The translations under genes and the position numbers were made by a program. A stretch of 64,000 bases of DNA. It comes from a virus. Taxonomy: Duplodnaviria > Caudoviricetes. Location of the stretch: positions 1 through 64,000 of the IMG/VR virus record IMGVR_UViG_2888028904_000001. One strand, written 5' to 3'. The notes under the pieces were generated by a model. It worked only from the letters and a program-made list of their open reading frames with translations. It did not search any database and had not been told where the DNA came from. Of the stretch, positions 1-17,789 are shown one piece after another (position 1 is the stretch's first letter; each line of letters opens with the position of its first letter).

Positions 1-1134
1 TTAAACAGCAATAATTTGCCATTCTTTGCCTCTATCGTCGTGGTATCTATCAGTCATATTTTGTGTTTTATGACCCAATAATTTTTGTGTATTAATTCCT
101 TGTTCTCGATAAAGTCGTTCGGATAAAGATCGCTGTTCATGGAAAGTCGGTGCCGTGCCTTTTTCCCAAGTTAACCCACATTTATCTCGCGCTTTTTTAA
201 ATGTTGTGGTTAACGTATTTGGCGTGACTTGTTCACCGCGTTTCGCTTGTGCGGTGGTATGCCGATAATGGACGAGATATTTGCTCACAACCGCGTCACG
301 ACATTGGGCAACAACATCCCTTAAGGAGAGATTGATAGCCTCACATTTTAGTGAGAGAGGGATGGCCAACTTACTCCCCGTTTTTTCTTGCTGTATATGT
401 AACATGTCATCCCAAATATCAGAGAATTTCATTTTACAGATATCACCGATCCGCTGACCTGTGGTTAAGGCCAGCAACATGCCACATTGCAAGTAAGGAG
501 GGTGGTTCTTAGCTTGCTGGTAAATAGTGCGCCATTCTTCCAATGTCATGCGTTCTCTTTTCACTCTGTTCCGTGGTTGTTTCGTTGCTTTCGCAGGATT
601 GTAACCAGGCGGAACATAGCCAGCATGTTGAGCTTCTTTAAATACATCAATAAGCACCATGCGAACGACCTGAGCCATTCTTGAATGTCCTAATACTTTG
701 ACTGAATCTATTATTTCAGCAATATCTAAAGCGGTTATCTCTTTTAATATTTTCGTACCACAATACTGACGGAATAAATTAATAGGTTTCATTTTTTGTC
801 GATAAGAATTAATTTTTAATTCACCGATATCTAATCTTTCTTTTTGAATATCTAAATATTTATCCATCCATATATCGACAGATATTTCAGACTTATTTGT
901 CTTAATTTTTGATAACCGTTCATTAATACTTAATAACTGTCGAGTATGTTGTTCTGCAATAATTGTATTGGCCTGAATGGCAGTTTCTCTCGCTTCCTGC
1001 TCGTCGGTGCCTAAGCTATGAAATTTACCAGTGATGGGATGTTTATATTGCCAATAAATTTTGCCGTTACGTTTATCTAGCTTTCGATATAGATTAGGAA
1101 TGATAATTTTATGGGTTCGTGGTCGGGCAGCCAT
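1..1134 (-). CDS. int: Lambda-family tyrosine integrase
   Basis: N-terminal arm-binding domain; TGQRIGD, FHEQRSL, LLGH..TDRY catalytic motifs. Confidence 0.97.
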   Translation of the reverse strand: MAARPRTHKIIIPNLYRKLDKRNGKIYWQYKHPITGKFHSLGTDEQEARETAIQANTIIAEQHTRQLLSINERLSKIKTNKSEISVDIWMDKYLDIQKERLDIGELKINSYRQKMKPINLFRQYCGTKILKEITALDIAEIIDSVKVLGHSRMAQVVRMVLIDVFKEAQHAGYVPPGYNPAKATKQPRNRVKRERMTLEEWRTIYQQAKNHPPYLQCGMLLALTTGQRIGDICKMKFSDIWDDMLHIQQEKTGSKLAIPLSLKCEAINLSLRDVVAQCRDAVVSKYLVHYRHTTAQAKRGEQVTPNTLTTTFKKARDKCGLTWEKGTAPTFHEQRSLSERLYREQGINTQKLLGHKTQNMTDRYHDDRGKEWQIIAV

Positions 1135-2359: not shown

Positions 2360-3007
2360 TTATGGTAAATGAGCTATTTTGGCATCCACAACAACACCCA
2401 CAATTTTACAATTTCCATTGATTGGTATTAAGCGGTATTGAGGGTTTAATGGTTTTAAGTAATGGTTGCCTGCATCCACAATGTACTGCTTAAATGTAAC
2501 TTCATTTTCAGATTCTAATTTAGCGACAACTAGCTTGCCACTAACAACCTCTACTGCGGGATCTACTAATATAATCATCCCTTCAGGAATACTTAGTCCA
2601 GAAGGAGAGGTCATAGAATCTCCTTTTACTTCTAGCCAAAATGATTCTTCGGAACAATGCACAGTTGTCTCATACCATGTATCGATTGATTTTCTATGAT
2701 ATGGCTCTACGGCCTCAGACCAATTCCCAGCGCTTACCCAGCTAATTAAAGGGTATTCACCACTAGATCTATTAAATTTTAAAAACGAAACATTAGAAAT
2801 AGGATCTTCTTTTCCATCAACAAGCCAAATAGGGCTTGTTTCAAGAGCACTCGCTAATGCTTGAAGATTAGCGCCATTGGGTTGATAGTCACCTTTTTCC
2901 CAACCAGTAACAGTTACACGATTAACTCCAGCTTTTTTAGCTAGAGCCTGTTGTGTCATTTTCAGCTCAAGGCGTCTTTGTTTAATTCGTTCGCTCATTT
3001 CTTTCAT
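2360..3007 (-). CDS. cI: CI-like repressor (XRE HTH + S24 peptidase)
   Basis: HTH TQQALAKKAGVNRVTVTGWE; VSAG cleavage site; GDSM and VTFK catalytic motifs; start taken at ATG 3007. Confidence 0.93.
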   Translation of the reverse strand: MKEMSERIKQRRLELKMTQQALAKKAGVNRVTVTGWEKGDYQPNGANLQALASALETSPIWLVDGKEDPISNVSFLKFNRSSGEYPLISWVSAGNWSEAVEPYHRKSIDTWYETTVHCSEESFWLEVKGDSMTSPSGLSIPEGMIILVDPAVEVVSGKLVVAKLESENEVTFKQYIVDAGNHYLKPLNPQYRLIPINGNCKIVGVVVDAKIAHLP

Positions 3008-3072
3008 GTAGGAAAGCCTACCACATTCTAAATGTAAGAATCTTGACATTTAAATGTAAGATATCCTACATT
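3007..3072 (+). promoter_or_regulatory. OR/PR: three operators (3007-3022, 3033-3048, 3055-3070) and promoter TTGACA(3043)-N18-TACATT(3067)
   Basis: Same 16-bp palindrome as OL, between divergent cI and cro. Confidence 0.8.
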
Positions 3073-3342: not shown

Positions 3343-3819
3343 ATGAGCAAACATTCAATTAAAGAAGTTATTAAAGAAATGTGCAAAGCACTGCCGGGTG
3401 GACGTTCTGCTATGGCAGGGGCTCTAGGTATGTCACTCGAGACGTTTAATAACAAGCTATACGAAAAAAATGGCTGTCGTTTCTTTGATATTGATGAACA
3501 GGAAGCCATGGAAGACATTTCGGGCACTAAGTTGCTGGTGGAATATCACCTAGATCGTCATGGCATGAGTGCACTACCAAAAATAGAAGCAGAAAAGATA
3601 GATCAAGTAGAGCTGTTTGATATGCGAATGACATTGGCTGCTATGCAAGGTTCACTCGCCGTTTTAATTCAAGAAAGTCTTGTTGATGGTGTTTTAACGG
3701 ATGAAGAAATAGGGCGTATTTATCGAAAAGCAGGAAAAGTTTTTGCGTATGCAATTGGGTTCTTGGATTCACTGAAAGTGTTATACGGTGAAAAACAGGA
3801 AGCGACTAAGAAAGGGTGA
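3343..3819 (+). CDS. YmfL/CII-like regulatory protein
   Basis: GGRSAMAGALGMS..FNNKLYEKNGCRFF; position after cro. Confidence 0.75.
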   Translation: MSKHSIKEVIKEMCKALPGGRSAMAGALGMSLETFNNKLYEKNGCRFFDIDEQEAMEDISGTKLLVEYHLDRHGMSALPKIEAEKIDQVELFDMRMTLAAMQGSLAVLIQESLVDGVLTDEEIGRIYRKAGKVFAYAIGFLDSLKVLYGEKQEATKKG

Positions 3820-4091: not shown

Positions 4092-4260
4092 AGATCCCAA
4101 TCGTCTTGATCGCTATTACAGAAACCCTCGAGGGCTCCTTGTTCATGTCATTCGTTATGATCGAGAAAAACAGCGCGTTATTTTTATGATTGATGGTTGT
4201 GAATACGAACAATGCGAGCCGGTTCAAAGATTTAAAGAGAGATATACCCGAGTTAAGTGA
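4081..4260 (+). CDS. DUF4222-like small phage protein
   Basis: RYYRNPRG..VHVIRYD...RVIFM pattern upstream of rep. Confidence 0.65.
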   Translation: MRNEDPNRLDRYYRNPRGLLVHVIRYDREKQRVIFMIDGCEYEQCEPVQRFKERYTRVK

Positions 4261-4268
4261 GGCCTCTT

Positions 4269-5333
4269 ATGAGTGTTAAATTATCTAGCTATGTTTGGGA
4301 TGGTTGCGCCCATGCAGGTTTAAAACTCACATCAGTCGCTATCATGGCAAGATTAGCTGATTTTTCTAATGATGAAGGCATTTGTTGGCCTTCTGTTGTG
4401 ACAATTGCTCGTCAAATTGGTGCGGGTGAAAGCACGGTGCGCACAGCAATAAAACAGTTGGAAAAAGAAGGGTGGTTAACCAGCGAAAAGCGTAGAAAAG
4501 GCAATCGCAACGCAAGCAATATCTATCAGCTGAATGTAGAGAAACTATACCAATCAGCAAAGAAAGCGCTTTCTCAACCAACAAAATCTGACGTATCAAA
4601 ACCTGACGCATCAGGATCTGACCCATCAAAATTTGTTGCATCAAATTCTGTTCCCTCAAAATCGAGCAAAAATAGGGATTTTGACCCGCCAGCTCCTGAG
4701 GGCGATCCATCAGTAACTTCAAAATATGATCCATCAATAAATTATTCTTCGTCGCAGAATTCTGGCGAATCCAGCGACCAGCCCAAAAATGATTTTTTAA
4801 CTCGTTATCCTGAAGCTGTGATTTACAGCGCCAACTTTCAAAAATGGGGCTCCGCTGACGATTTGAAGTGCGCTAAATGGCTATTCAGTCGTAAATGCGA
4901 AGTGTTTCAAGAGATGGGATTAAAAACGCCTAAAGAGCCAAATTTCACTGATTGGGCTAATGATATTCGCTTAATGACAACGATTGATGGGCATACTCAC
5001 AAAGAAATTTGCCAGTTCTATAAACGAATTACGCAAGATGATTTTTGGAAAAAGAATGTTCAGTGTCCTCGTACACTCAGGGCTCAATGGGATGATTTAA
5101 CCTTACGTTTGGCGGGTAAGAAAAAAATCACCATCGACTCCGTAGAGCGTGATGAAACATTCCGGCTCATCTGGGGTACGGGTTGGAAACCTAAAAATAA
5201 AATCCAAGAATTAGCCGCTATTCAGGCAAAGAAAAATGGTCTAGGCCGAATGAATGAGGTTGCAGGTTTAGCTGCGTGGCGAGGTATTTGGCAACAAGTC
5301 GCGGAACAAGTTGCTCAGGAAGTTTTGCTATAA
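4269..5333 (+). CDS. Phage replication initiator (N-terminal HTH)
   Basis: LADFSNDEGICWPSV..IA HTH; internal iteron-like repeats. Confidence 0.88.
   Translation: MSVKLSSYVWDGCAHAGLKLTSVAIMARLADFSNDEGICWPSVVTIARQIGAGESTVRTAIKQLEKEGWLTSEKRRKGNRNASNIYQLNVEKLYQSAKKALSQPTKSDVSKPDASGSDPSKFVASNSVPSKSSKNRDFDPPAPEGDPSVTSKYDPSINYSSSQNSGESSDQPKNDFLTRYPEAVIYSANFQKWGSADDLKCAKWLFSRKCEVFQEMGLKTPKEPNFTDWANDIRLMTTIDGHTHKEICQFYKRITQDDFWKKNVQCPRTLRAQWDDLTLRLAGKKKITIDSVERDETFRLIWGTGWKPKNKIQELAAIQAKKNGLGRMNEVAGLAAWRGIWQQVAEQVAQEVLL
4581..4670 (+). repeat. Six tandem degenerate 15-bp repeats (consensus ~TCAAAATCTGACGCA), probable ori iterons
   Basis: Visible 15-bp periodicity in the middle of the rep gene. Confidence 0.7.
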
Positions 5334-7183: not shown

Positions 7184-7210
7184 CGTGTGTACGGCACGGG
7201 GAGTATTAGT

Positions 7211-7615
7211 ATGAGAGATATGCAGGAAGTTTTATCGCGTTGGGGAGCGTGGTGTGCTGATAATACTGAATCAGTTCAATGGTATTCTATCGCAGCAGGT
7301 TTTAAAAGATTAATCCCTAATAAAGTAAAATCTCGTCCTCAGTGTTGTGAAGATGATGCAATGGTAATTTCCAGTTGTATGGCCCAATTAAATAAAAAAA
7401 ATAGTGATATGCATGATCTCTTGCTCGATTATTATTTATTTGGAATGACTTTCATTCAGTTAGCCAAAAAACATCATTGCTCTGATACTTACATTGGAAA
7501 AAAACTACAAAAAGCGGAAGGTATCATTGAAGGAATGTTGATGATACTTGAGATTCCATTGGAAATGGATCGATATGTAAAAAAGTTATATAAAGACTTT
7601 ACGATCGTAAAATAA
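7211..7615 (+). CDS. Q: Late antiterminator Q
   Basis: [30 protein letters not shown]. Confidence 0.9.
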
Positions 7616-9598: not shown

Positions 9599-10291
9599 TA
9601 AATATAAAACCACCCGCTATGCGGGTGGGCATTAAAGGTTATACCAAGAAAAACACCTTTCCGTTACGATATAGATGTTCAAGCTAATATTCGTAACTTA
9701 AATAAGGAAAGGTGTTTATGGGCATTAAAGCACAAAGCTCAGTACATACAAAGTGGCTGTGTAAATACCATATCGTCTTTTCGCCGAAATATAGACGGAA
9801 AGTAATTTTTAATAAAATTCGTTCAAGTATAGGTGAGATCCTTCGAGACCTTTGTAAGTATAAAGGAGTGGAAATAATCGAAGGGCATCTTATGCCAGAT
9901 CATGTTCATATGTTAGTGAGTATTCCACCGAAGATATGCGTATCAAGTTTCATGGGATATTTGAAAGGTAAAAGTTCGTTGATGATCTTTGATAGACATG
10001 CCAATCTTAAATATAAATTTGGCAACAGAAAGTTTTGGGCGGAAGGGTTCTATGTCACAACAGTTGGACTCAATGAAGCCACAATTCAGAAGTATATCAG
10101 AGAGCAAGAAAAGTCGGATTTAATCTCAGATAAATTGAGTAGTAAAGAGTATGTCGACCCCTTCAAGGGGTAAGCCAAAGTAGCAAAGACACTTAGCTTG
10201 AACGAAGAGAAAGCAGCGTCATTTAGGCGCAGTCGGTAACAAGCCCTTATAGGGCTAGAGCAAACCACCCGTTTTACGGGTGGTTATGATT
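9599..10291 (+). mobile_element. IS200/IS605-family element (IS200-like, tnpA only); ends approximate
   Basis: Subterminal hairpins CCACCCG..CGGGTGG at ~9610-9628 and ~10266-10283; AAACACCTTTCC/GGAAAGGTGTTT inverted repeat covering the tnpA RBS. Confidence 0.9.
9718..10173 (+). CDS. tnpA: IS200-family Y1 HUH transposase
   Basis: YHIVFSPKYRR, DHVHM (HUH), LKGKSS, YIREQ. Confidence 0.96.
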   Translation: MGIKAQSSVHTKWLCKYHIVFSPKYRRKVIFNKIRSSIGEILRDLCKYKGVEIIEGHLMPDHVHMLVSIPPKICVSSFMGYLKGKSSLMIFDRHANLKYKFGNRKFWAEGFYVTTVGLNEATIQKYIREQEKSDLISDKLSSKEYVDPFKG

Positions 10292-10446: not shown

Positions 10447-10653
10447 TTGCTATCTGAATTTTTCTATGGCTTAATAGCGTCACTGGTTTGGAAGTACAGA
10501 CCTATTTATGTTAGTAAGTTTAAAGTTGTTCCCGTTTAGCGTTATCCTCGATACCTCTTCATTGTGAATTCCTTCTAATTAATTCCCATAAGTAAAAATA
10601 CAAAACAAACCGCCTATGCCTTATGGCAAATTAAATAAATTAAAGGAAATTCT
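10447..10653 (+). promoter_or_regulatory. csp promoter and long cold-shock 5' UTR
   Basis: TTGCTA...CTTAAT promoter; GGTTTGGAAGTACAGACC cold-box hairpin like the cspA leader. Confidence 0.65.
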
Positions 10654-10866
10654 ATGTCTAATACAATGACTGGTACAGTAAAATGGTTCGATGAAGGTAA
10701 AGGTTTTGGTTTTATTACTCCAGCTGATGGTAGCAAAGATGTCTTCGTACATTTCTCTGCAATCCAAAGTGATAACTTCAAAACATTAGCTGAAGGTCAA
10801 CAAGTTTCATTCACCATGGAAAATGGTATGAAAGGCCCAGCAGCAGGCAACGTGGTGGCTCTCTAA
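10654..10866 (+). CDS. csp: CspA-family cold-shock protein
   Basis: KGFGFI (RNP1) and VFVHF (RNP2). Confidence 0.97.
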
Positions 10867-10873
10867 AGGCGCT

Positions 10874-11015
10874 ATTACTATTCGCCTCTATTATTAAATG
10901 CCCTTGTTGTAGCGGTTCACAACATAGAACATCACAATTTGATGTCACAGTGAACAATCCACACGGCGCAAAATGTATCTTTTGCAAAAGTGTGATGACA
11001 GCTCAAATGAGTTAA
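10874..11015 (+). CDS. YmcF/YnfQ-like Cys-rich cold-shock microprotein (ATT start; possible +1 frameshift near 10893)
   Basis: 10896-11015 translates as KCPCCSGSQHRTSQFDVTVNNPHGAKCIFCKSVMTAQMS*, directly after csp. Confidence 0.8.
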
Positions 11016-11036
11016 GCATTAAATAGTTGAATATAC

Positions 11037-11062
11037 AAAACCTCGCTTCGGCGGGGTTTTTT
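11037..11062 (+). terminator. Rho-independent terminator
   Basis: AAAACCTCGC-TTCG-GCGGGGTTTTTT. Confidence 0.85.
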
Positions 11063-11198
11063 GCTATCTACAATCCCATATTGGTCTAAGATAAAAAATT
11101 TAGATTTTAGGGCTTGAAAAATACTTGCTCGTTCATATTTATATTTTTGGTAAATAAGAGACCGCCCATAATTCACTAAATACTGAAGGAGGAGTTAT

Positions 11199-11657
11199 AT
11201 GCCTAACATTAAACCTTTTTCATTATTCCCAACATTATCTGACAACTTACTTTCAAATCGTTTTGATCAGATAGATCACCTGTTTAGCCAGTTAACAGGC
11301 AGTAAGCCTATTGTATCACCTGTACAGACTTATAATCTGAAACAGATTGATGATAACCATTATGAATTGACAGTCAGTGTGCCTGGATATCAAGAAAATG
11401 ACTTATCGGTTTCATTAAAAGGAAGTCATTTATTGATTGAAGGGAAAAAAGAAGAAAAATCAGAAGAAGACAATGATAAATGGATCCACCGAGGCATATT
11501 TCAAGGGCAATTTACATTGCAATTTGACCTCGGTAAAAATGTTAAAATAGAAAAAGCGGATTTATCAAGTGGACTTCTGACCATCGCTATTGAGTATGAG
11601 TTGCCTGAAGAAGAAAAACGGCAAACAATAGCGATAGAAAATAAAGATAAAAAATAA
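11199..11657 (+). CDS. Small heat-shock protein (Hsp20/IbpA family)
   Basis: YNL..IDDNHYEL.VSVPG, HRGI..F..F.L, A.L..GLL.I; CTTGAAAA sigma32-like -35 at ~11113. Confidence 0.93.
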   Translation: MPNIKPFSLFPTLSDNLLSNRFDQIDHLFSQLTGSKPIVSPVQTYNLKQIDDNHYELTVSVPGYQENDLSVSLKGSHLLIEGKKEEKSEEDNDKWIHRGIFQGQFTLQFDLGKNVKIEKADLSSGLLTIAIEYELPEEEKRQTIAIENKDKK

Positions 11658-11900: not shown

Positions 11901-12689
11901 TTATAATAATCTTTGTGACAGTTGCATAAGCGCATCAGCCTCTGTGACATCACCAAATATTATTATCGAATCACTATTTAAACCGTTAAGAGACGGTCCG
12001 TACCAAGCCTTTTCCTTTCCACTATTGTACTGAACAAAAATAAACCTATCGTGGAACGTTGAGGTGTTATTATGGTTCGAGACTGAACAGCGAGGAAATT
12101 TTTGCTGAATTCGTTTTTCAAGCCTATCTATTTTTTGAAGGTCGTTTTGCGGTGTTAGCTTAAGTTCAAATGATGATGTACTAAGAATATTCAGATGTTC
12201 CAATAGCTTTAACAAATTATCAAACCCACCTCCGTTGCCATTTTGTCCAATGTCTGAATAAATGTAGGGATCTGTGAGGATTACTCGCTGTACTATTGCT
12301 TTTTTTATCTTTGTTGTGTCGATCAAGTTAAAAAATGATTTGGCTGGCGGATTATGGCCTTTCCCGCCTGCAACCGTCATCAATTGCATATCGTTGTTGA
12401 CGTTAAATCCTCCTTTCTTCCGTAGGCAATACGGATGATTGCAGGAATCCCCTTCAGGTATATCTGTTACTGGTTCTTCAAACCTTTGAAGCCAATCGCG
12501 AATTGCTTCGTGAAGTTCGTATGCATCCCAATATAAAGGATGAAAGAATGCTCGTGGATGCTTTGTGATGCCTTTGCACTTTTCATTTGAGAACAATTCA
12601 GGGGCGCTTTCTCTTAATTCTTTTACGTCTTTAGCTCGTGGGGGTAAATCGAGAATCATTCGTGTAAACCATTCCATCGTTCTCTCCAT
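11901..12689 (-). CDS. Hypothetical protein with C-terminal PLD-like (HDR) domain
   Basis: ILTDPYI ... FHDRFIFV ... YGPSLNGL motif set. Confidence 0.6.
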   Translation of the reverse strand: MERTMEWFTRMILDLPPRAKDVKELRESAPELFSNEKCKGITKHPRAFFHPLYWDAYELHEAIRDWLQRFEEPVTDIPEGDSCNHPYCLRKKGGFNVNNDMQLMTVAGGKGHNPPAKSFFNLIDTTKIKKAIVQRVILTDPYIYSDIGQNGNGGGFDNLLKLLEHLNILSTSSFELKLTPQNDLQKIDRLEKRIQQKFPRCSVSNHNNTSTFHDRFIFVQYNSGKEKAWYGPSLNGLNSDSIIIFGDVTEADALMQLSQRLL

Positions 12690-13109
12690 TACGGGTAACA
12701 GTTTAAAGGGTTATATTGACAGGCTGGATATTATATCGCTAGATTTCATCATATTACACTTTTCAGCATGCCTATTAAACGTCTTCTCCGAGGATTAGCA
12801 CACCGACAAATTTTGAATGGCTTCTTTTGGCACTAAACTGCCTGTAAACAGAACTCAAGAGGCTGATTTGAGCGAGGAGCGGAAGTTGGCATTTGCCATA
12901 ACCGCAGGGATGTAGGATTAACATTGACGTGTAATAATCAACTGGGAGAAGGTCAGGATTGCCTAACACTGTGGGGGGCGACGGCCGAGTTGACGGATCA
13001 CAAGGGAAAACTGCTGGCCAATAGCGACAGTGTGGCCAGCCCTTTGCGTAAGGTGTGCAATAAATCCTAGGCGGATATGCCAAGCGCAGAAAAAACCTCT
13101 AGGGGTAAG

Positions 13110-14267
13110 TTACTTGGTCGCAGCGGTTGGTCTTCCAACAAATAGATTGATACCGCTCCTTCGAAACTTACTTCTGTCGAATACGGAGACCGCGAACACC
13201 TCCGCAATGTGTTTGATCTGTTCAGGGCTGAAGTTATCGTTAATATACTTCGGACCGTAGGCGGAGTTCTCAACGTAGTTGAGTACGATGTTTGAAAGGC
13301 CAATCTTCAGCGCTTCATCCTCTAGCTTGAGCAGTCGTTCTATCGACGCCTTGAAGCTCTGGTTACCCTTAGAGAAGGTGAAGATGACATGGGTTTTATC
13401 GCCTTCCGGAAAAACGTTGAGCATCACGTTCTTTATTTCAGCATTGCTCGCTGCGCTTGATCGAGCCATTCGCTGCTCCTCCTGCTCGGATATGATCCGA
13501 CTGCCATCATGGTCGAAGTATGGGATAAACGACGCGCAGCATGCTACAAGGAAAGTACCGTCGAGGACATGGTAGACGTGCTCGAATCCCAACGACTCCT
13601 CGCGTTCTATAGTGTCTGTCAACTCGTCGCAGATTTGCTGCAGTTCAGAAATGCTGTGTTCGCACTGCATGTGCAGTACCCGAATTTGATGGTTCTTCTC
13701 CCCTTGCAACATGGCTTCGAGAATGAAGTCAGGGACCTCGATTTCGCCTGACTTGATCTGCGGTAGCGTCATCTGGAAGTGCGCTGGAAAGTCATTAACG
13801 TTTAACTTGTCACCCAGCAGAACTTCGAAAAAAGCCTTTGACTCAAGGATGGAGTGTAATTCCTTGGCTGCAGCCCGATAGGCGTAGATGTTCAGCTGCT
13901 TGTTCGTTGCACTGAACGCTACATCTTCAATCGGTTGGAATATGGCTTTGTCGTGGCCGCCGCAGAATCCGGTGAAGGTGCTGAATTTTTTGATTCCTTG
14001 TAGCTTAAATTCCGGCTGCATAGATTGCATGTCCTCTGCCGGCGCTAAGCCAAGGTGGTATATTTTCCCCTCGTTTTCTCCGCTTACATCTGCGATAGAT
14101 TCGAGTATTTTTCCCCGTTGGATAGAGTGGGCATGGATAATTTTCCCAGAACACTTAAGTTTATCGTCGCCGGCTCGCAAGCATGCTTTTATGCTGGCTT
14201 CTTTCTGGTTTTGGCTCAAAAGTTTGTTGAACTCGATCTGCTCTGGATTCACTAAGATTTTCCTCAA
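13110..14267 (-). CDS. Hypothetical protein with Cys/His HNH-like N-terminal domain
   Basis: C..C..HAHSIQ ... FTGFCGGHD..IF..IE; GC-rich relative to phage. Confidence 0.55.
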   Translation of the reverse strand: MRKILVNPEQIEFNKLLSQNQKEASIKACLRAGDDKLKCSGKIIHAHSIQRGKILESIADVSGENEGKIYHLGLAPAEDMQSMQPEFKLQGIKKFSTFTGFCGGHDKAIFQPIEDVAFSATNKQLNIYAYRAAAKELHSILESKAFFEVLLGDKLNVNDFPAHFQMTLPQIKSGEIEVPDFILEAMLQGEKNHQIRVLHMQCEHSISELQQICDELTDTIEREESLGFEHVYHVLDGTFLVACCASFIPYFDHDGSRIISEQEEQRMARSSAASNAEIKNVMLNVFPEGDKTHVIFTFSKGNQSFKASIERLLKLEDEALKIGLSNIVLNYVENSAYGPKYINDNFSPEQIKHIAEVFAVSVFDRSKFRRSGINLFVGRPTAATK

Positions 14268-14344
14268 ACAAGGCTGGCAAGCCCCGGGCTTGCATTATTT
14301 GGGCCTTCATGGGTCTCCTATGCGCCCCCTGTGTGAAAGGATGG

Positions 14345-15133
14345 CTAGATTCTGGTCGGCGCAATACTCTGAAGATCTTTGCACAAGGCAATGCCGTAGG
14401 CATTTGCAAGGTTGGCAATCTGCATTCCTATGGATTTCCGAAGTGCTGACAGTGCGTCATTGAAATGGAGCCACTCAGGATTACCTGAACTACATCGTAA
14501 TGTTCTAAGGTCGACTGACTTCATCGCGTCGAAGAAAATCAGAATCGTCTTGGTTAGCGACAGCAGTATTTCATCAAGTGCTGTTCCGTCGAGGAGATTC
14601 CCCCGAATAGTGGTGAATCGTCGACGAAGTTCATCAAGCGACTGTCGTACGTGGTCGGGACATTCGGCATCGAATGTGGCCCATAACGAACGACGATCCG
14701 TCATTGCAGAGACGATTTCCTTCGCTATCTGCGGTTCCATGCGCCCAGATTGAAGCAAGGCAAGACTGCGTGAATATCCTTCGGTGCGGACCTCTGATAC
14801 CATATTCTCGTGGTCTCGCTTCCACTTGCGAAGCAAGTCCGCGTCGTAAGCGCAGTCGTCACCATCGACAATGACTCCGCACTCCCGACAAAGCCACAGA
14901 CCGTTATCTATGGACGTTCGTTCTGCGACGGTCTGCGAGGTCTTGTAGCGTGGCCCCAGTTCGGAGGCCGCATGAATATGTGCAGCGTGACCCGAAGTCA
15001 AAGCTTTGTTTGGGTCGGAGTGCGGCCCGATCGTGAGCTTGAGACAACGCGGATTGGAGCAAAAATGTGCAGCCCGACGGGCAAGCGCTAATTTCGTGGC
15101 TGCTTTGAAGTCATCCCTCTTGGTCACTCCCAA
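14345..15133 (-). CDS. HNH endonuclease fused to DUF6650-like C-terminal domain
   Basis: CSNPRC..AAHIHAAS..GPRY..NGLWLCREC..VD; C-terminal RRSLW..E.PDHV.QSL.ELR. Confidence 0.7.
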   Translation of the reverse strand: MGVTKRDDFKAATKLALARRAAHFCSNPRCLKLTIGPHSDPNKALTSGHAAHIHAASELGPRYKTSQTVAERTSIDNGLWLCRECGVIVDGDDCAYDADLLRKWKRDHENMVSEVRTEGYSRSLALLQSGRMEPQIAKEIVSAMTDRRSLWATFDAECPDHVRQSLDELRRRFTTIRGNLLDGTALDEILLSLTKTILIFFDAMKSVDLRTLRCSSGNPEWLHFNDALSALRKSIGMQIANLANAYGIALCKDLQSIAPTRI

Positions 15134-15571
15134 CCTCTCTGTTTAATATGAATTATTTTCCCTAAATATTATCACGTCGTAGGAGCGAAAGCACTGACCA
15201 ATGCACTAAAACTCGATCGCGCCAGAGCCTTTAGTGTTCGATTCTCAATAGACGCTGCTGCATAAATCTGTGTGCTTAAGCCAGTAGGTTTTTTGCATGA
15301 GCCAGCCCAACAGTAGTTCCAAACCACGTTATCTATCCTAGCTGGTTCTGATATAACGCGGCTTTGAAGACTCGGAACAATCCTGTTCGCACGCAACCTG
15401 GAGTAGCGGTCTTTTAGCTGTATGGGCACAACGAAACTTGCTTACCATTGCGATCAGCTCTGCTGAATCTCCGACCTTGGCAGGGCAGCAGTCACTCAGT
15501 CCATGGAGAGTTCAATGATTGGTAGGACTACAGTGGCCACCTATCCGCCAAAACTGGAGGCTACAGTCAAT

Positions 15572-15678: not shown

Positions 15679-15784
15679 AAAAAAATGCCGATACGCTAGG
15701 AGTCATATCGGCATATAAAATAAACGCAAGAAGCAATGTAAGTCATGTCGTACTAATTCGTATCAGACCTGTCAATTTGATACG
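15679..15784 (-). ncRNA. ryhB: RyhB-like small RNA
   Basis: Core AGTACGACATGACTTACATTGCTTC vs E. coli RyhB AGCACGACATTGCTCACATTGCTTC (recalled); 5' stem CGTATCA/TGATACG; terminator ATGCCGATA/TATCGGCAT + U7; Fur-boxed promoter. Confidence 0.85.
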
Positions 15785-15787
15785 TAT

Positions 15788-15819
15788 GTAATGATAATTA
15801 TTCTCATTAATATATTCAA
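15788..15819 (-). promoter_or_regulatory. Fur box overlapping sigma70 promoter of the sRNA
   Basis: TGATAAT-T-ATTCTCA 7-1-7 motif (15792-15806); TTGAAT(15819-15814)-N17-TATCAT(15796-15791). Confidence 0.85.
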
Positions 15820-15948
15820 CCTTAAATTAAATAAGGTTACTTTGTAGCCTTTTTGTCTACGCCGACCACAGAATCAACACCCACTTATACCGTTCACACA
15901 AGAGCTGTGAGTCGGCACCTTATTAACTAAAATAAATCGGTAAATGTT

Positions 15949-16377
15949 ATGTCAAAAGAGATAAGCAAATTACAGTTTAGTCTTCACTATGCCTCAGAAA
16001 CAGACAGTGAAAAGAATACCTCCGTCATTTTAACGGCGAATATCCATACGGCTGATGGTGAAACCCAACAACTGACACAATTAATTTGTACAACATCTCC
16101 CGCAGGTAAAAAACAATATCGAATCGGTACACGAAAGATTAATGATGCTGGTGACCCATTGCTGGTGGCAATTGAATCTTATTGGCGCAAAAACACACAA
16201 GAGAGCTGTATTTATTTGTTAGAGAAAGCGAAGCAATTTATTCAAGGACACTTACAACAAACGAATACATGAATATCCATGTACGGACTTGTGATTGTTT
16301 CTAATGCGTCACTGGAAGAGCAATTGCCTGAAGGTTTATTAAAGGCACTTAAAGTATCAATACTCGCACCCGCCTAA
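15949..16377 (+). pseudogene. Hypothetical pre-holin gene with probable premature TGA at 16270-16272
   Basis: Frame continues 34 sense codons past the TGA to TAA 16377. Confidence 0.5.
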
Positions 16378-16442
16378 TTTTTATCGTTTCACTTTTAATT
16401 CTCTCATTCTAATCATCAACGGACACTCCTCTGGGGGTGACT

Positions 16443-16712
16443 ATGCGTATGGAAAAATTAACTAATGTAACTTATGGAACAGCAGGTCTAACGGCCTTTT
16501 TTGCCAGCCTCTCATTATATGAATGGGGATTTGTTATCGGAATGGCGTTTAGCATGGTTCTTGGTTTAGCCACCTATTTTATGACTCGTCGAGAGCAACG
16601 AAAACGCACTCAATTATTTGAAGAGCTTGTTCGTCATGTTGACCCACAAAACCCAACTGAAACCCTAAAAAGACTTGCTGAATTAATGGTGAAAGCGCCA
16701 AAGGATATTTAA
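16443..16712 (+). CDS. Holin with dual-start (Met-Arg-Met) motif
   Basis: Hydrophobic segments; ATG CGT ATG start; upstream of endolysin. Confidence 0.8.
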   Translation: MRMEKLTNVTYGTAGLTAFFASLSLYEWGFVIGMAFSMVLGLATYFMTRREQRKRTQLFEELVRHVDPQNPTETLKRLAELMVKAPKDI

Positions 16713-17182
16713 TGTCTATCAAACAGAAAGTAGCTGCGCTAACAACTGCGGGAGCCACAGCAATCGCGTTAGTAGTAATAGCCCATTTTGAGGGTGTGCG
16801 TTATGAACCTTATCGTGATGTGGCAGGTGTTTTGACGGTTTGTTATGGGCACACAGGCAAAGACATTATTCAAGGTAAGAGATACACACAACAAGAATGT
16901 GATGCGTTATTACAAAGTGATTTTATTAAGACACAACAGCAAGTCGATGCATTAATCAAAGTACCACTCGATGACTACACCAAAGCCGCTTTATATTCCT
17001 TTGCTTTTAATGTGGGTACAACCGCATTTGCTCGCTCAACATTACTCAAGAAACTAAACGCTGGTGATAGAGCGGGTGCCTGTGAAGAAATAAAACGTTG
17101 GGTTTATGCAGGAGGAAAGGTTTGGCGAGGGCTTGTCAGTCGTCGAGAAGCGGAGTCAGCACTATGTTATGGAAACCTTTAA
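16712..17182 (+). CDS. Lysozyme (SAR-type endolysin, GH24)
   Basis: Hydrophobic N-terminus; EG....Y.D..GV.TVCYGHT triad. Confidence 0.95.
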   Translation: MSIKQKVAALTTAGATAIALVVIAHFEGVRYEPYRDVAGVLTVCYGHTGKDIIQGKRYTQQECDALLQSDFIKTQQQVDALIKVPLDDYTKAALYSFAFNVGTTAFARSTLLKKLNAGDRAGACEEIKRWVYAGGKVWRGLVSRREAESALCYGNL

Positions 17183-17322
17183 TCATCATTATCGGCTTTA
17201 TTCTTGCATTACTCATTACAGTCGCTGGTGGCATTTATCTCTTGATTGATAACTCATGTACTAAAGATCAAGTTAGTTTAGAAAAACGCTGTCAGATTGC
17301 ACTCTCACATCATCGGTACTAA
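17164..17322 (+). CDS. 52-aa single-TM protein with C-x10-C
   Basis: Same-length homolog at same position in prophage 2 (52981-53139). Confidence 0.7.
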   Translation: MLWKPLIIIIGFILALLITVAGGIYLLIDNSCTKDQVSLEKRCQIALSHHRY

Positions 17323-17324
17323 TC

Positions 17325-17789
17325 ATGAAATACGGAAAACTCTATGCCGTCATTACGATGGTAGGCATCATTGTGGGTAGTTATTGGGTGATTAACTGGC
17401 AAGCTAACAGGATTAACTCACTGACAGATACCAACAAAAAACTAACAGTGGCTCTCGAAGAACAGAAGTCTATTAATGCTGATTACCAAGCACGCATAAT
17501 GCGGTTAAACCAACTGGATATTCAATATACGCAGGAGTTAGCGAATGCTAAAAATGAAATTAGTCGCTTGCGTGATATTAGTGAGCGTCATCCTGAGCGG
17601 GTGTATATCAAAGCAGAGTGTCCCAAAGTCACAACCACTCCCTCCACCAGCTTGGCTTATGCAACCACCGCCCGACCTACTGACACCGCTATCAGAAATT
17701 ATTGGATACTCCGAGAACGAATTGCAGAATTAGAGCAAATGATTAAAGGGTTGCAGGATTATGTAAGGCATGGGTGTTTAATAAATTAA
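17325..17789 (+). CDS. Rz: Rz i-spanin
   Basis: N-terminal TM, coiled coil, LQDYVR end. Confidence 0.88.
   Translation: MKYGKLYAVITMVGIIVGSYWVINWQANRINSLTDTNKKLTVALEEQKSINADYQARIMRLNQLDIQYTQELANAKNEISRLRDISERHPERVYIKAECPKVTTTPSTSLAYATTARPTDTAIRNYWILRERIAELEQMIKGLQDYVRHGCLIN
17545..17733 (+). CDS. Rz1: Rz1 o-spanin lipoprotein embedded in Rz
   Basis: LSGC lipobox, Pro-rich PPPAWLMQPPP. Confidence 0.85.
   Translation: MLKMKLVACVILVSVILSGCISKQSVPKSQPLPPPAWLMQPPPDLLTPLSEIIGYSENELQN

Follow-up and report, generated by a model that had tools for sequence, protein, structure and literature searches.

We found that a lambdoid prophage of Proteus carries a real and expressed derivative of the RNA RyhB with an altered seed. 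The gene for this small RNA (sRNA) was located on the minus strand at 15679-15819 of a DNA stretch of 64,000 nucleotides (hereafter the window; positions 1 to 64,000 of the IMG/VR provirus record IMGVR_UViG_2888028904_000001), between the antiterminator gene Q and the lysis genes. RyhB (RF00057) is the Fur-repressed, Hfq-dependent iron-sparing sRNA of enterobacteria. With moderate confidence, we favoured the explanation that the gene is a working phage-borne derivative of this iron-starvation sRNA of the host, a self-contained moron that occupies the Q-to-lysis cargo slot and opposes the late genes. An initial annotation of this DNA had described a complete minus-strand sRNA gene here, and all of the features that it listed were found in their places.

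Likeness to RyhB and to the chromosomal copies of Proteus

The region of the sRNA was compared with the 4227 families of Rfam. RyhB was the best match, with 30.1 bits and an E-value of 0.0017 (701 nt) spanning 15679-15757, and over the whole record the E-value of this match was 5e-5. The likeness to RyhB exceeds chance. The initial annotation had counted 21 of 25 core positions in agreement with the E. coli RyhB core, and the same number, 21 of 25, agreed with the Rfam RyhB consensus. Its term "RyhB-like" was borne out in two respects: RyhB was the best family, and the gene aligned with the chromosomal copies of Proteus, including the promoter and Fur box. However, the score was below the threshold of the family. 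The initial annotation had named the lack of a significant Rfam match to RyhB as refuting, and the match obtained counters this at a sub-threshold score only. At the gathering threshold, cspA alone was reported in the window.

The chromosomal copies gave a frame for this score. Matches to RF00057 over the threshold were present in five Proteus genomes, three to four in each, at ~75-82, 73, 59-60 and 55-60 bits, and the phage-type copy in the same genomes gave 30.1 bits. All of the chromosomal copies retained ACGACATTGCTCACATTGCTTC, which most of them continued with CCAG and copy C with TAG. In the phage core, 19 of the 22 positions of the conserved ACGACAUUGCUCACAUUGCUUCCAG were the same as in all four chromosomal copies, and CCAG was replaced by CUUG (DNA CTTG). 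The second half-motif, ACAUUGCUUC, was retained and the first was altered. Over the promoter and RNA, the phage copy was 61-64% identical to each of the chromosomal copies A-D, which were 60-77% identical among themselves. The best-scoring chromosomal partner was copy C, and the terminator loop CTCCTAGCG was common to both. The -10 and the Fur box of the phage copy were in register with those of the chromosomal paralogues. From these alignments, we read the phage gene as a probable diverged fifth paralogue, outside the RyhB threshold of Rfam.

Taken feature by feature, the phage sRNA resembled RyhB in the Fur-box look-alike over the -10, the open core, the AU-rich stretch and the intrinsic terminator. 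However, it differed in being carried by a prophage and in its score, 30.1 bits where the gathering score is 55. In addition, its first motif was changed from ACAUUGCU to ACAUGACU, its 5' hairpin was extra and of different sequence, and it was without the predicted pairing with the bfr-like and sdhC start regions.

Two chromosomal ryhB copies were found ~5 kb apart (loci L010-L028 and L141; Proteus genomes G001-G005), with a weak RyhB-like match between them. They were surrounded by genes for MliC, a GNAT protein, cspA, a lipid A acyltransferase and a 5'-nucleotidase. Capture of the phage gene from this cspA-ryhB neighbourhood was unsupported, cspA being the sole common part (79.7% over 438 nt). 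An ordinary RyhB core was also present in 12 IMG/VR contigs (L074-L085). It lay within ~250 nt of the locus start in 9 of the 12, a pattern as if proviruses end beside the host ryhB and integrate at a nearby site.

Promoter, Fur-box look-alike and terminator

The signals of the gene were examined on the minus strand (Table 1). The TTGAAT-N17-TATCAT promoter and the overlapping 7-1-7 Fur box of the initial annotation were confirmed letter by letter at the sequence level, and its 5' stem-loop and U7 terminator were reproduced by folding, which gave a hairpin at 15784-15759 and a terminator stem-loop at 15714-15685, with the T-run continuing to 15679. In the promoter scan, the two hexamers around the 17-nt spacer matched 9 of 12 consensus positions. 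The Fur-box repeat TGAGAAT-A-ATTATCA was located at 15806-15792 and covered the -10. The 19-mer at 15811-15793 agreed with the textbook Fur consensus at 15 of 19 positions, and the opposite strand scored equally. Overlapping 14/19 matches, offset by 6 nt, were also present at the promoter. A Fur box over the promoter, which marks members of the RyhB family, was present at the sequence level and in register with the chromosomal ryhB boxes. The Hfq-type 3' module, another such mark, was also present, with the 11-pair terminator and U7 following the AU/U-rich stretch UUUAUUUUAUAU. The fold energy of the sRNA was -25.1 kcal/mol (z -3.0), and 1 of 200 shuffled sequences was equally stable. Within a 1.5-kb region, the promoter scan alone was not significant (6 sites against 3.4 ± 2.4 expected), nor was the terminator scan alone (3 sites against 1.2 ± 1.3 expected). 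The conservation of the gene and the RNA-seq reads support it independently. Fur control and Hfq dependence of the phage sRNA are both likely.

A 16-codon open reading frame (ORF), MTYIASCVYFICRYDS, starts at an ATG that arises through the seed change and ends in the terminator loop. It was rejected as the main function; no Shine-Dalgarno sequence was seen by eye, and the ATG was gone in three divergent copies.

Transcription of the sRNA gene

Nine RNA runs contained part of the stretch, and four of them were examined (X1, X3, X21 and X24). X1 and X3 were contigs, and in X24 the depth was the same in the two directions and continued over the promoter, as if the run were unstranded; these three gave no evidence of transcription. 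X21 was stranded. Over the plus-strand ORF at 15958-16050, the first mate lay on the plus strand in 4-7 reads and on the minus strand in 71-81. Over the sRNA at 15679-15771, it lay on the plus strand in 24-30 reads and on the minus strand in 4-9. Since the polarity of the mates was reversed between the two (29 against 9 reads over the sRNA, 6 against 80 over the ORF), the RNA over the sRNA gene was minus-strand RNA. Its depth was 29, 29.8 and 23.8 over 15679-15771, 7.45 over 15772-15802 and 0 over 15803-15864. Fifteen reads stopped matching at 15782, continued with three letters of the variant of the strain and then ran into unlike letters, and the loose read ends fell at 15782-15785. This pointed to a 5' end of the minus-strand RNA at ~15785. 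Transcription in the lysogen was therefore found in one stranded run, with a 5' edge near 15785. The initial annotation had expected a transcript of ~105 nt; the minus-strand RNA and its 5' edge at the predicted start are in line with the gene, but no reads marked a 3' end at the terminator.

Predicted pairing of the altered core

We calculated the duplex energy of the open core against seven start regions of Proteus, with 100 shuffles each; the calculation ignores accessibility and Hfq. The chromosomal copies A-D paired with the start region of a ferritin-family (bfr-like) gene through CUGGAAGCAAAGGAGCA at -30.0 to -31.5 kcal/mol (z -4.5 to -5.7), and with that of sdhC at z -2.1 to -3.9. The phage copy stayed at background on all seven start regions, with z +0.2 to -1.1 by duplex energy only. 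The sodB start region was weak for all copies, both phage and chromosomal. These data support a target set of the phage sRNA that differs from that of the chromosomal copies, as far as a crude pairing calculation can tell. The suggestion of the initial annotation that the core substitutions may shift the targets was in line with this loss of strong bfr-like and sdhC pairing in the crude duplex energies.

A possible target was looked for in one Proteus genome, among the start regions of its 17 TonB-dependent receptor genes. The start region of L172 gave -23.2 kcal/mol (z -3.5), which was reached in 5 of 1000 shuffles, and the predicted pairing used the AU-rich 11-mer beside the terminator and a 6-mer. 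After 17 tests, this receptor may be regarded as a weak lead. The proposal that the sRNA acts on TonB-receptor levels gained this one weak computational lead. Within the provirus, the best site other than the complement of the gene itself was at 82341, outside the window (-29.8 kcal/mol), where it spans the ATG of a 160-aa ORF (82349) and the bases directly before it.

Sites of long complementarity found by BLAST were rejected as targets, none being at a start codon. They were a chromosomal ryhB copy, AT-rich stretches, a 17/18 site in a prophage coding sequence and a 12-mer coding for QEAM. The gene with the 12-mer reads like an ABC-transporter ATPase by eye, and a shorter look-alike with one mismatch was present in a neighbouring coding region. 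The prophage site belongs to locus L127 of genome G216. It lies in a coding sequence, ninG-like by eye, ~3 kb from the sRNA copy and is complementary to 17 of 18 seed letters; no site of this type was found in the prophage of the window.

The predicted loss of pairing with classic targets also fits an action by competition. An iron-induced, Hfq-binding look-alike would sequester Hfq or common partners, and the three to four chromosomal RyhB copies would then respond more weakly or in a different way. The regulatory signal and the Hfq-type 3' module are the same as in those copies, and the second RyhB core motif is retained. However, the depth in X21 was modest, ~30 reads over the sRNA against ~80 over the neighbouring ORF, and small RNAs are under-sampled in such libraries. 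We consider competition quite improbable, the least probable of the explanations weighed here.

Distribution, conservation and seed variants

The exact 25-mer of the core was found at seven places in five named Proteus genomes, namely P. penneri, P. vulgaris, P. columbae (twice), P. cibi and Proteus sp. FME41 (twice). The core 22-mer was present in 43 IMG/VR contigs. Of 21 Proteus species genomes, 15 contained the gene in a BLAST search with the promoter and RNA. When a covariance model of 32 distinct copies was run against 151 genomes, 19 matches of at least 90 bits were obtained, all of them in these 15 Proteus genomes. Among 201 sampled genomes of the wider family, the Proteus centre genome alone had the sRNA, and in 10 others the match was limited to 24-33 nt of the Fur-box part. 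No match to the 301-nt sRNA region was found among 50,697 GenBank phage records. Ten Fur-box look-alike sites were noted elsewhere, and six of them were examined with their eight adjacent ORFs. One ORF was a GpmA-like phosphatase, and the rest were TetR, SecE, AraC or of no family; gpmA is Fur-controlled in E. coli.

Conservation was measured in an alignment of 40 distinct loci, drawn from a context survey of 51 loci (window included), 44 of which had sufficient flank. The RNA positions 15692-15751, which comprise the core 22-mer and the 38 nt downstream, were 100% identical. Since the 22-mer was the search key, free conservation is that of the other 38 nt only. The promoter showed 93-98% identity, the adjacent ORF 72-84% and the DNA past the terminator 13-67%. 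Purifying selection on the sRNA is well supported by this pattern of sequence identity.

The unpaired core had the same letters in every copy of the main type. In divergent Proteus species, the seed carried substitutions or deletions of 4 or 10 nt. ACCAC replaced ATTGC in L097, three substitutions were present in L098, and deletions of 4 nt and 10 nt in L101 and L099, respectively. In contrast to the seed, the AU-rich stretch and the terminator were near-constant across the divergent copies. The CTTCTTGCG stretch was altered in a single copy (L100, CTTCTTGTG), and the UUUAUUUUAUAU stretch ahead of the terminator differed at one position, in L099 alone among 32 aligned variants. A further RyhB-like gene was found in an unrelated lambdoid prophage type, L160 (Q of phrog_127, holins of phrog_198 and phrog_217), in the same slot and orientation. 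It had a Fur-box-like sequence (by eye, unscored), a 5' hairpin, a first motif of the chromosomal type, a 5-nt gap in the core and a terminator of the phage type; no Rfam match was obtained for it at E 0.1.

These variants also bear on whether the gene is a passenger, a copy of host RyhB that was acquired by a phage and spreads with the cargo, functionless and heading to decay. Decayed or altered copies exist, namely L007, L099, L101, a second copy in L098 and L159. L007 (Proteus sp. FME41, 432-538) is without the promoter and 5' hairpin, has two changes in the terminator stem and shares its contig with an intact copy 26 kb away, and the degenerate copy L159 adjoins hsp20. The target searches, which found none, fit a passenger as well. 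However, the 38 nt outside the search key were invariant in the 40 distinct loci, with a neighbouring ORF at 72-84% and unrelated downstream DNA. In addition, the gene persisted while the adjacent cargo was swapped, and it was transcribed in X21. A functionless passenger appears unlikely to us.

Position in the prophage and opposition to the late genes

The record is an IMG/VR provirus, a lambdoid prophage of Proteus, and the sRNA gene is cargo of it. This bore out the description of the gene as prophage-encoded and antisense to the late region, since it lies between Q (7187-7615) and the holin, lysozyme and Rz genes (16437-17789) and runs opposite to the late genes. As in a moron, its own promoter and terminator stand inside the prophage and outside the phage operons, on the opposite strand, and the gene stays while its neighbours vary. 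Among the 51 loci, the phrog_2473 gene was upstream and divergent in 41, usually with holin, lysozyme and Rz behind it, and hsp20 was downstream of the sRNA in 33, at 150 bp to 7.5 kb. In the Proteus phage vB_BPM-V3, Q was followed directly by the same lysis genes, without the sRNA (6-kb query). The homology between this phage and the window runs rightwards from 15850, which lies 31 nt upstream of the -35 of the sRNA.

Table 1. Positions of the sRNA gene, its signals and the surrounding prophage genes in the window
Feature	Positions	Strand	Basis or remark
Predicted RyhB-like sRNA, ~107 nt, start to U-run	15679..15785	-	RF00057 match, fold, stranded RNA-seq
-35 hexamer TTGAAT	15814..15819	-	Sequence and promoter scan; 93-98% conserved over 40 distinct loci
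-10 hexamer TATCAT	15791..15796	-	Promoter scan; in line with the -10 of four chromosomal Proteus ryhB promoters
Fur-box look-alike, overlapping the -10	15792..15811		7-1-7 repeat; 19-mer 15/19; aligns with the Fur-box position of the paralogues
5' hairpin, 7 pairs	15759..15784	-	Fold; 93.3% of cells paired, one two-sided pair change
Unpaired 44-nt core	15715..15758	-	RyhB-like seed (25-mer 15730-15754), CUUCUUGCG and AU-rich stretches ahead of the terminator
Intrinsic terminator: 11-pair stem, 8-nt loop, U7	15679..15714	-	Terminator scan and fold; 98.9% of cells paired, one compensatory pair
Conserved spacer, sRNA promoter to first lysis-side gene	15832..15911		Identity bins; plus-strand terminator-like hairpin 15833-15851
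Integrase	1-1134	-	
CI-type repressor	2360-3049	-	
CII-like activator	3343-3819	+	
O-like replication protein	4257-5333	+	
Antiterminator Q	7187-7615	+	phrog_79, E 3.3e-48
Transposase in cargo	9712-10173		phrog_2577, E 2.8e-45
phrog_2473 gene	15949-16272	+	Divergent neighbour of the sRNA
Holin	16437-16712	+	
Lysozyme	16712-17182	+	
Rz	17325-17789	+	

The sRNA gene opposes the late genes, and late transcription driven by Q would have to cross it in antisense. This raises an action in cis, in which a Fur-controlled promoter fires against the late operon and the RNA, or its transcription, blocks or cleaves plus-strand transcripts bound for the lysis genes. The gene would then be an insulator in the lysogen or would time lysis by iron, and targets in trans would be secondary. 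Two unrelated lambdoid prophage types have retained this slot and a direction opposed to the late genes. In every locus with an identified Q, its distance from the sRNA was 3.8-8.8 kb, which obliges late transcripts to pass through the gene. In X21, plus-strand RNA crossed it at depths of 9, 7.5, 3.8, 2 and 1.2, fading toward 15833, where a terminator-like plus-strand hairpin (15833-15851, 98% conserved) adjoins the promoter. However, convergent transcription alone needs neither 100% identity of the RNA body nor an open core of the RyhB type, an AU-rich stretch and a U-run. In addition, the promoter-like sites after Q are consensus matches only. We regard a main action in cis as improbable, if less so than a passenger.

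The spacer upstream of the sRNA promoter was itself conserved. Identity in the four 20-nt bins over 15832-15911 was 98, 86, 95 and 97%, whereas the adjacent ORF reached 72-84%. The hairpin in this spacer, which has a T-run, may halt stray plus-strand transcripts before they reach the lysis genes.

Proposed function of the phage sRNA

In the explanation that we favour, a working phage-borne RyhB derivative, Fur would bind the 7-1-7 box over the -10 in the presence of iron and close the promoter, as suggested by the sequence and by homology to the chromosomal ryhB promoters. Without iron, the RNA of ~107 nt would be made; its transcription and 5' edge were seen in one run, and the iron response is predicted. 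The AU-rich stretch and the U-run of the terminator would bind Hfq, and the 44-nt open core would pair with mRNAs. By the crude pairing calculation, the 3 of 22 changed core bases and the change from CCAG to CTTG abolish the fit to the bfr-like and sdhC start regions, so that the target set should differ. Any late transcript driven by Q must contain the exact complement of the sRNA, which makes an added antisense effect on induction unavoidable in principle.

Several results weighed against this explanation. The RF00057 score of 30.1 bits was well under the gathering score, and there was no RyhB match at the curated threshold. In DNA so rich in AT, Fur matches of at least 15/19 are not rare; five were present in the record of 86,953 bp against a mean of 1.05 in 20 shuffles. 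Covariation was thin, with compensatory changes in 2 of 18 pairs (32 copies; 96.7% of cells paired), and does not prove the fold because there was too little variation among the copies. No start-codon site with long complementarity was found by BLAST in five complete Proteus genomes, and nothing convincing was found inside the provirus beyond the complement of the gene itself. One of the four examined RNA runs was informative. In that run, X21, 34 reads passed the U-run into the flank of the strain itself, which left a discrete 107-nt species unsupported; either the terminator was passed or the library missed the short species. In addition, several copies look decayed, by promoter deletion in L007, by seed deletions in L099 and L101, and by degeneration in the second L098 copy and L159.

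A wider explanation can be offered tentatively. Temperate phages of Proteus would keep a diversifying family of Fur-wired, RyhB-derived sRNAs in the fixed slot between Q and lysis, with re-aimed seeds, and tap the iron-starvation signal of the host for their own programme. The family would comprise the main type, the variant with the ACCAC seed, the variants with 4- and 10-nt deletions and the second lineage in another prophage type. The programme could be the silencing of a Fur-induced surface receptor or of other host genes, or the tying of late expression and lysis to the iron supply. We hold this to be possible, with less confidence than the function of the single gene.

Relation to known sRNAs

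Extra RyhB paralogues are known in enterobacteria, such as RyhB-2/IsrE of Salmonella and RyhB1/2 of Yersinia. In these paralogues the core is retained, and they reside in the chromosome or on islands. The situation in Proteus was similar in that several Fur-type RyhB copies occur per genome, three to four of them chromosomal and over the Rfam threshold. However, the phage copy is altered in its core and is carried by a temperate phage. PrrF of Pseudomonas (RF00444) is also a Fur-controlled, iron-sparing sRNA, and it gave a weak match over the promoter and RNA. The match had 18.9 bits against a gathering score of 90 and an E-value of 1.2, which made PrrF an analogue and not a relative.

Among the sRNAs of lambdoid prophages, AsxR/AgvB and StxS are known. 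The phage sRNA resembles such RNAs as a small regulatory RNA with its own signals that is prophage cargo and is expected to act on host mRNAs. Further examples are DicF (PMC5069750), svsR (PMC12803456) and the Pas sRNAs (bioRxiv 10.64898/2026.05.13.724894). In contrast to the present gene, DicF, svsR, Pas, AsxR/AgvB and StxS are not known to derive from a core-genome sRNA of the host that answers to the same stress regulator. A passage of PMC12803456 mentions ryhB-2, and in passages of PMC12803456 and bioRxiv 10.64898/2026.05.13.724894, RyhB appears as a core-genome comparison only. No description of a phage-borne RyhB was found in the titles and abstracts among the matches listed, or in passages of PMC12803456 and the Pas preprint.

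RyhB is a textbook sRNA of the core-genome stress response, and the phage sRNAs are otherwise phage-specific inventions, judged from titles and abstracts among the matches listed. If it is true that the input, Fur and iron, was kept and the output, the seed, was changed, the gene would show how mobile elements plug into host stress circuits. It would also show the evolution of an sRNA target set through duplication and seed change. Because Proteus mirabilis encounters iron limitation in the urinary tract, the iron response of lysogens may not be that of non-lysogens. The natural seed variants form a ready-made series for testing seed-target rules.

Neighbouring genes in the cargo

The sRNA gene stands at the right edge of a cargo of ~8 kb between Q and the lysis genes. 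This cargo contained two unknown ORFs, the transposase, cspA, Hsp20, four minus-strand ORFs of unknown family and the sRNA. Long plus-strand ORFs were present in the window from ~19700 onward. A complete cspA thermoregulator (237 bits) belonged to the cspA gene, which together with the Hsp20 gene occupied 10482-11657. Since 33 of the 51 loci had Hsp20 as well as the sRNA, a cold-shock gene, a heat-shock gene and an iron RNA travel as one module. The four co-oriented minus-strand ORFs (11901-15429) lay immediately downstream of the sRNA and were present in 0 of the 50 other loci. In its N-terminal domain, the 262-aa product of 14345-15133 resembled the endonuclease effectors of PDC-M68A and CBASS-type defence systems (E 5e-22). 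It is possible that the ORFs at 11901-15429 are an anti-phage defence insert.

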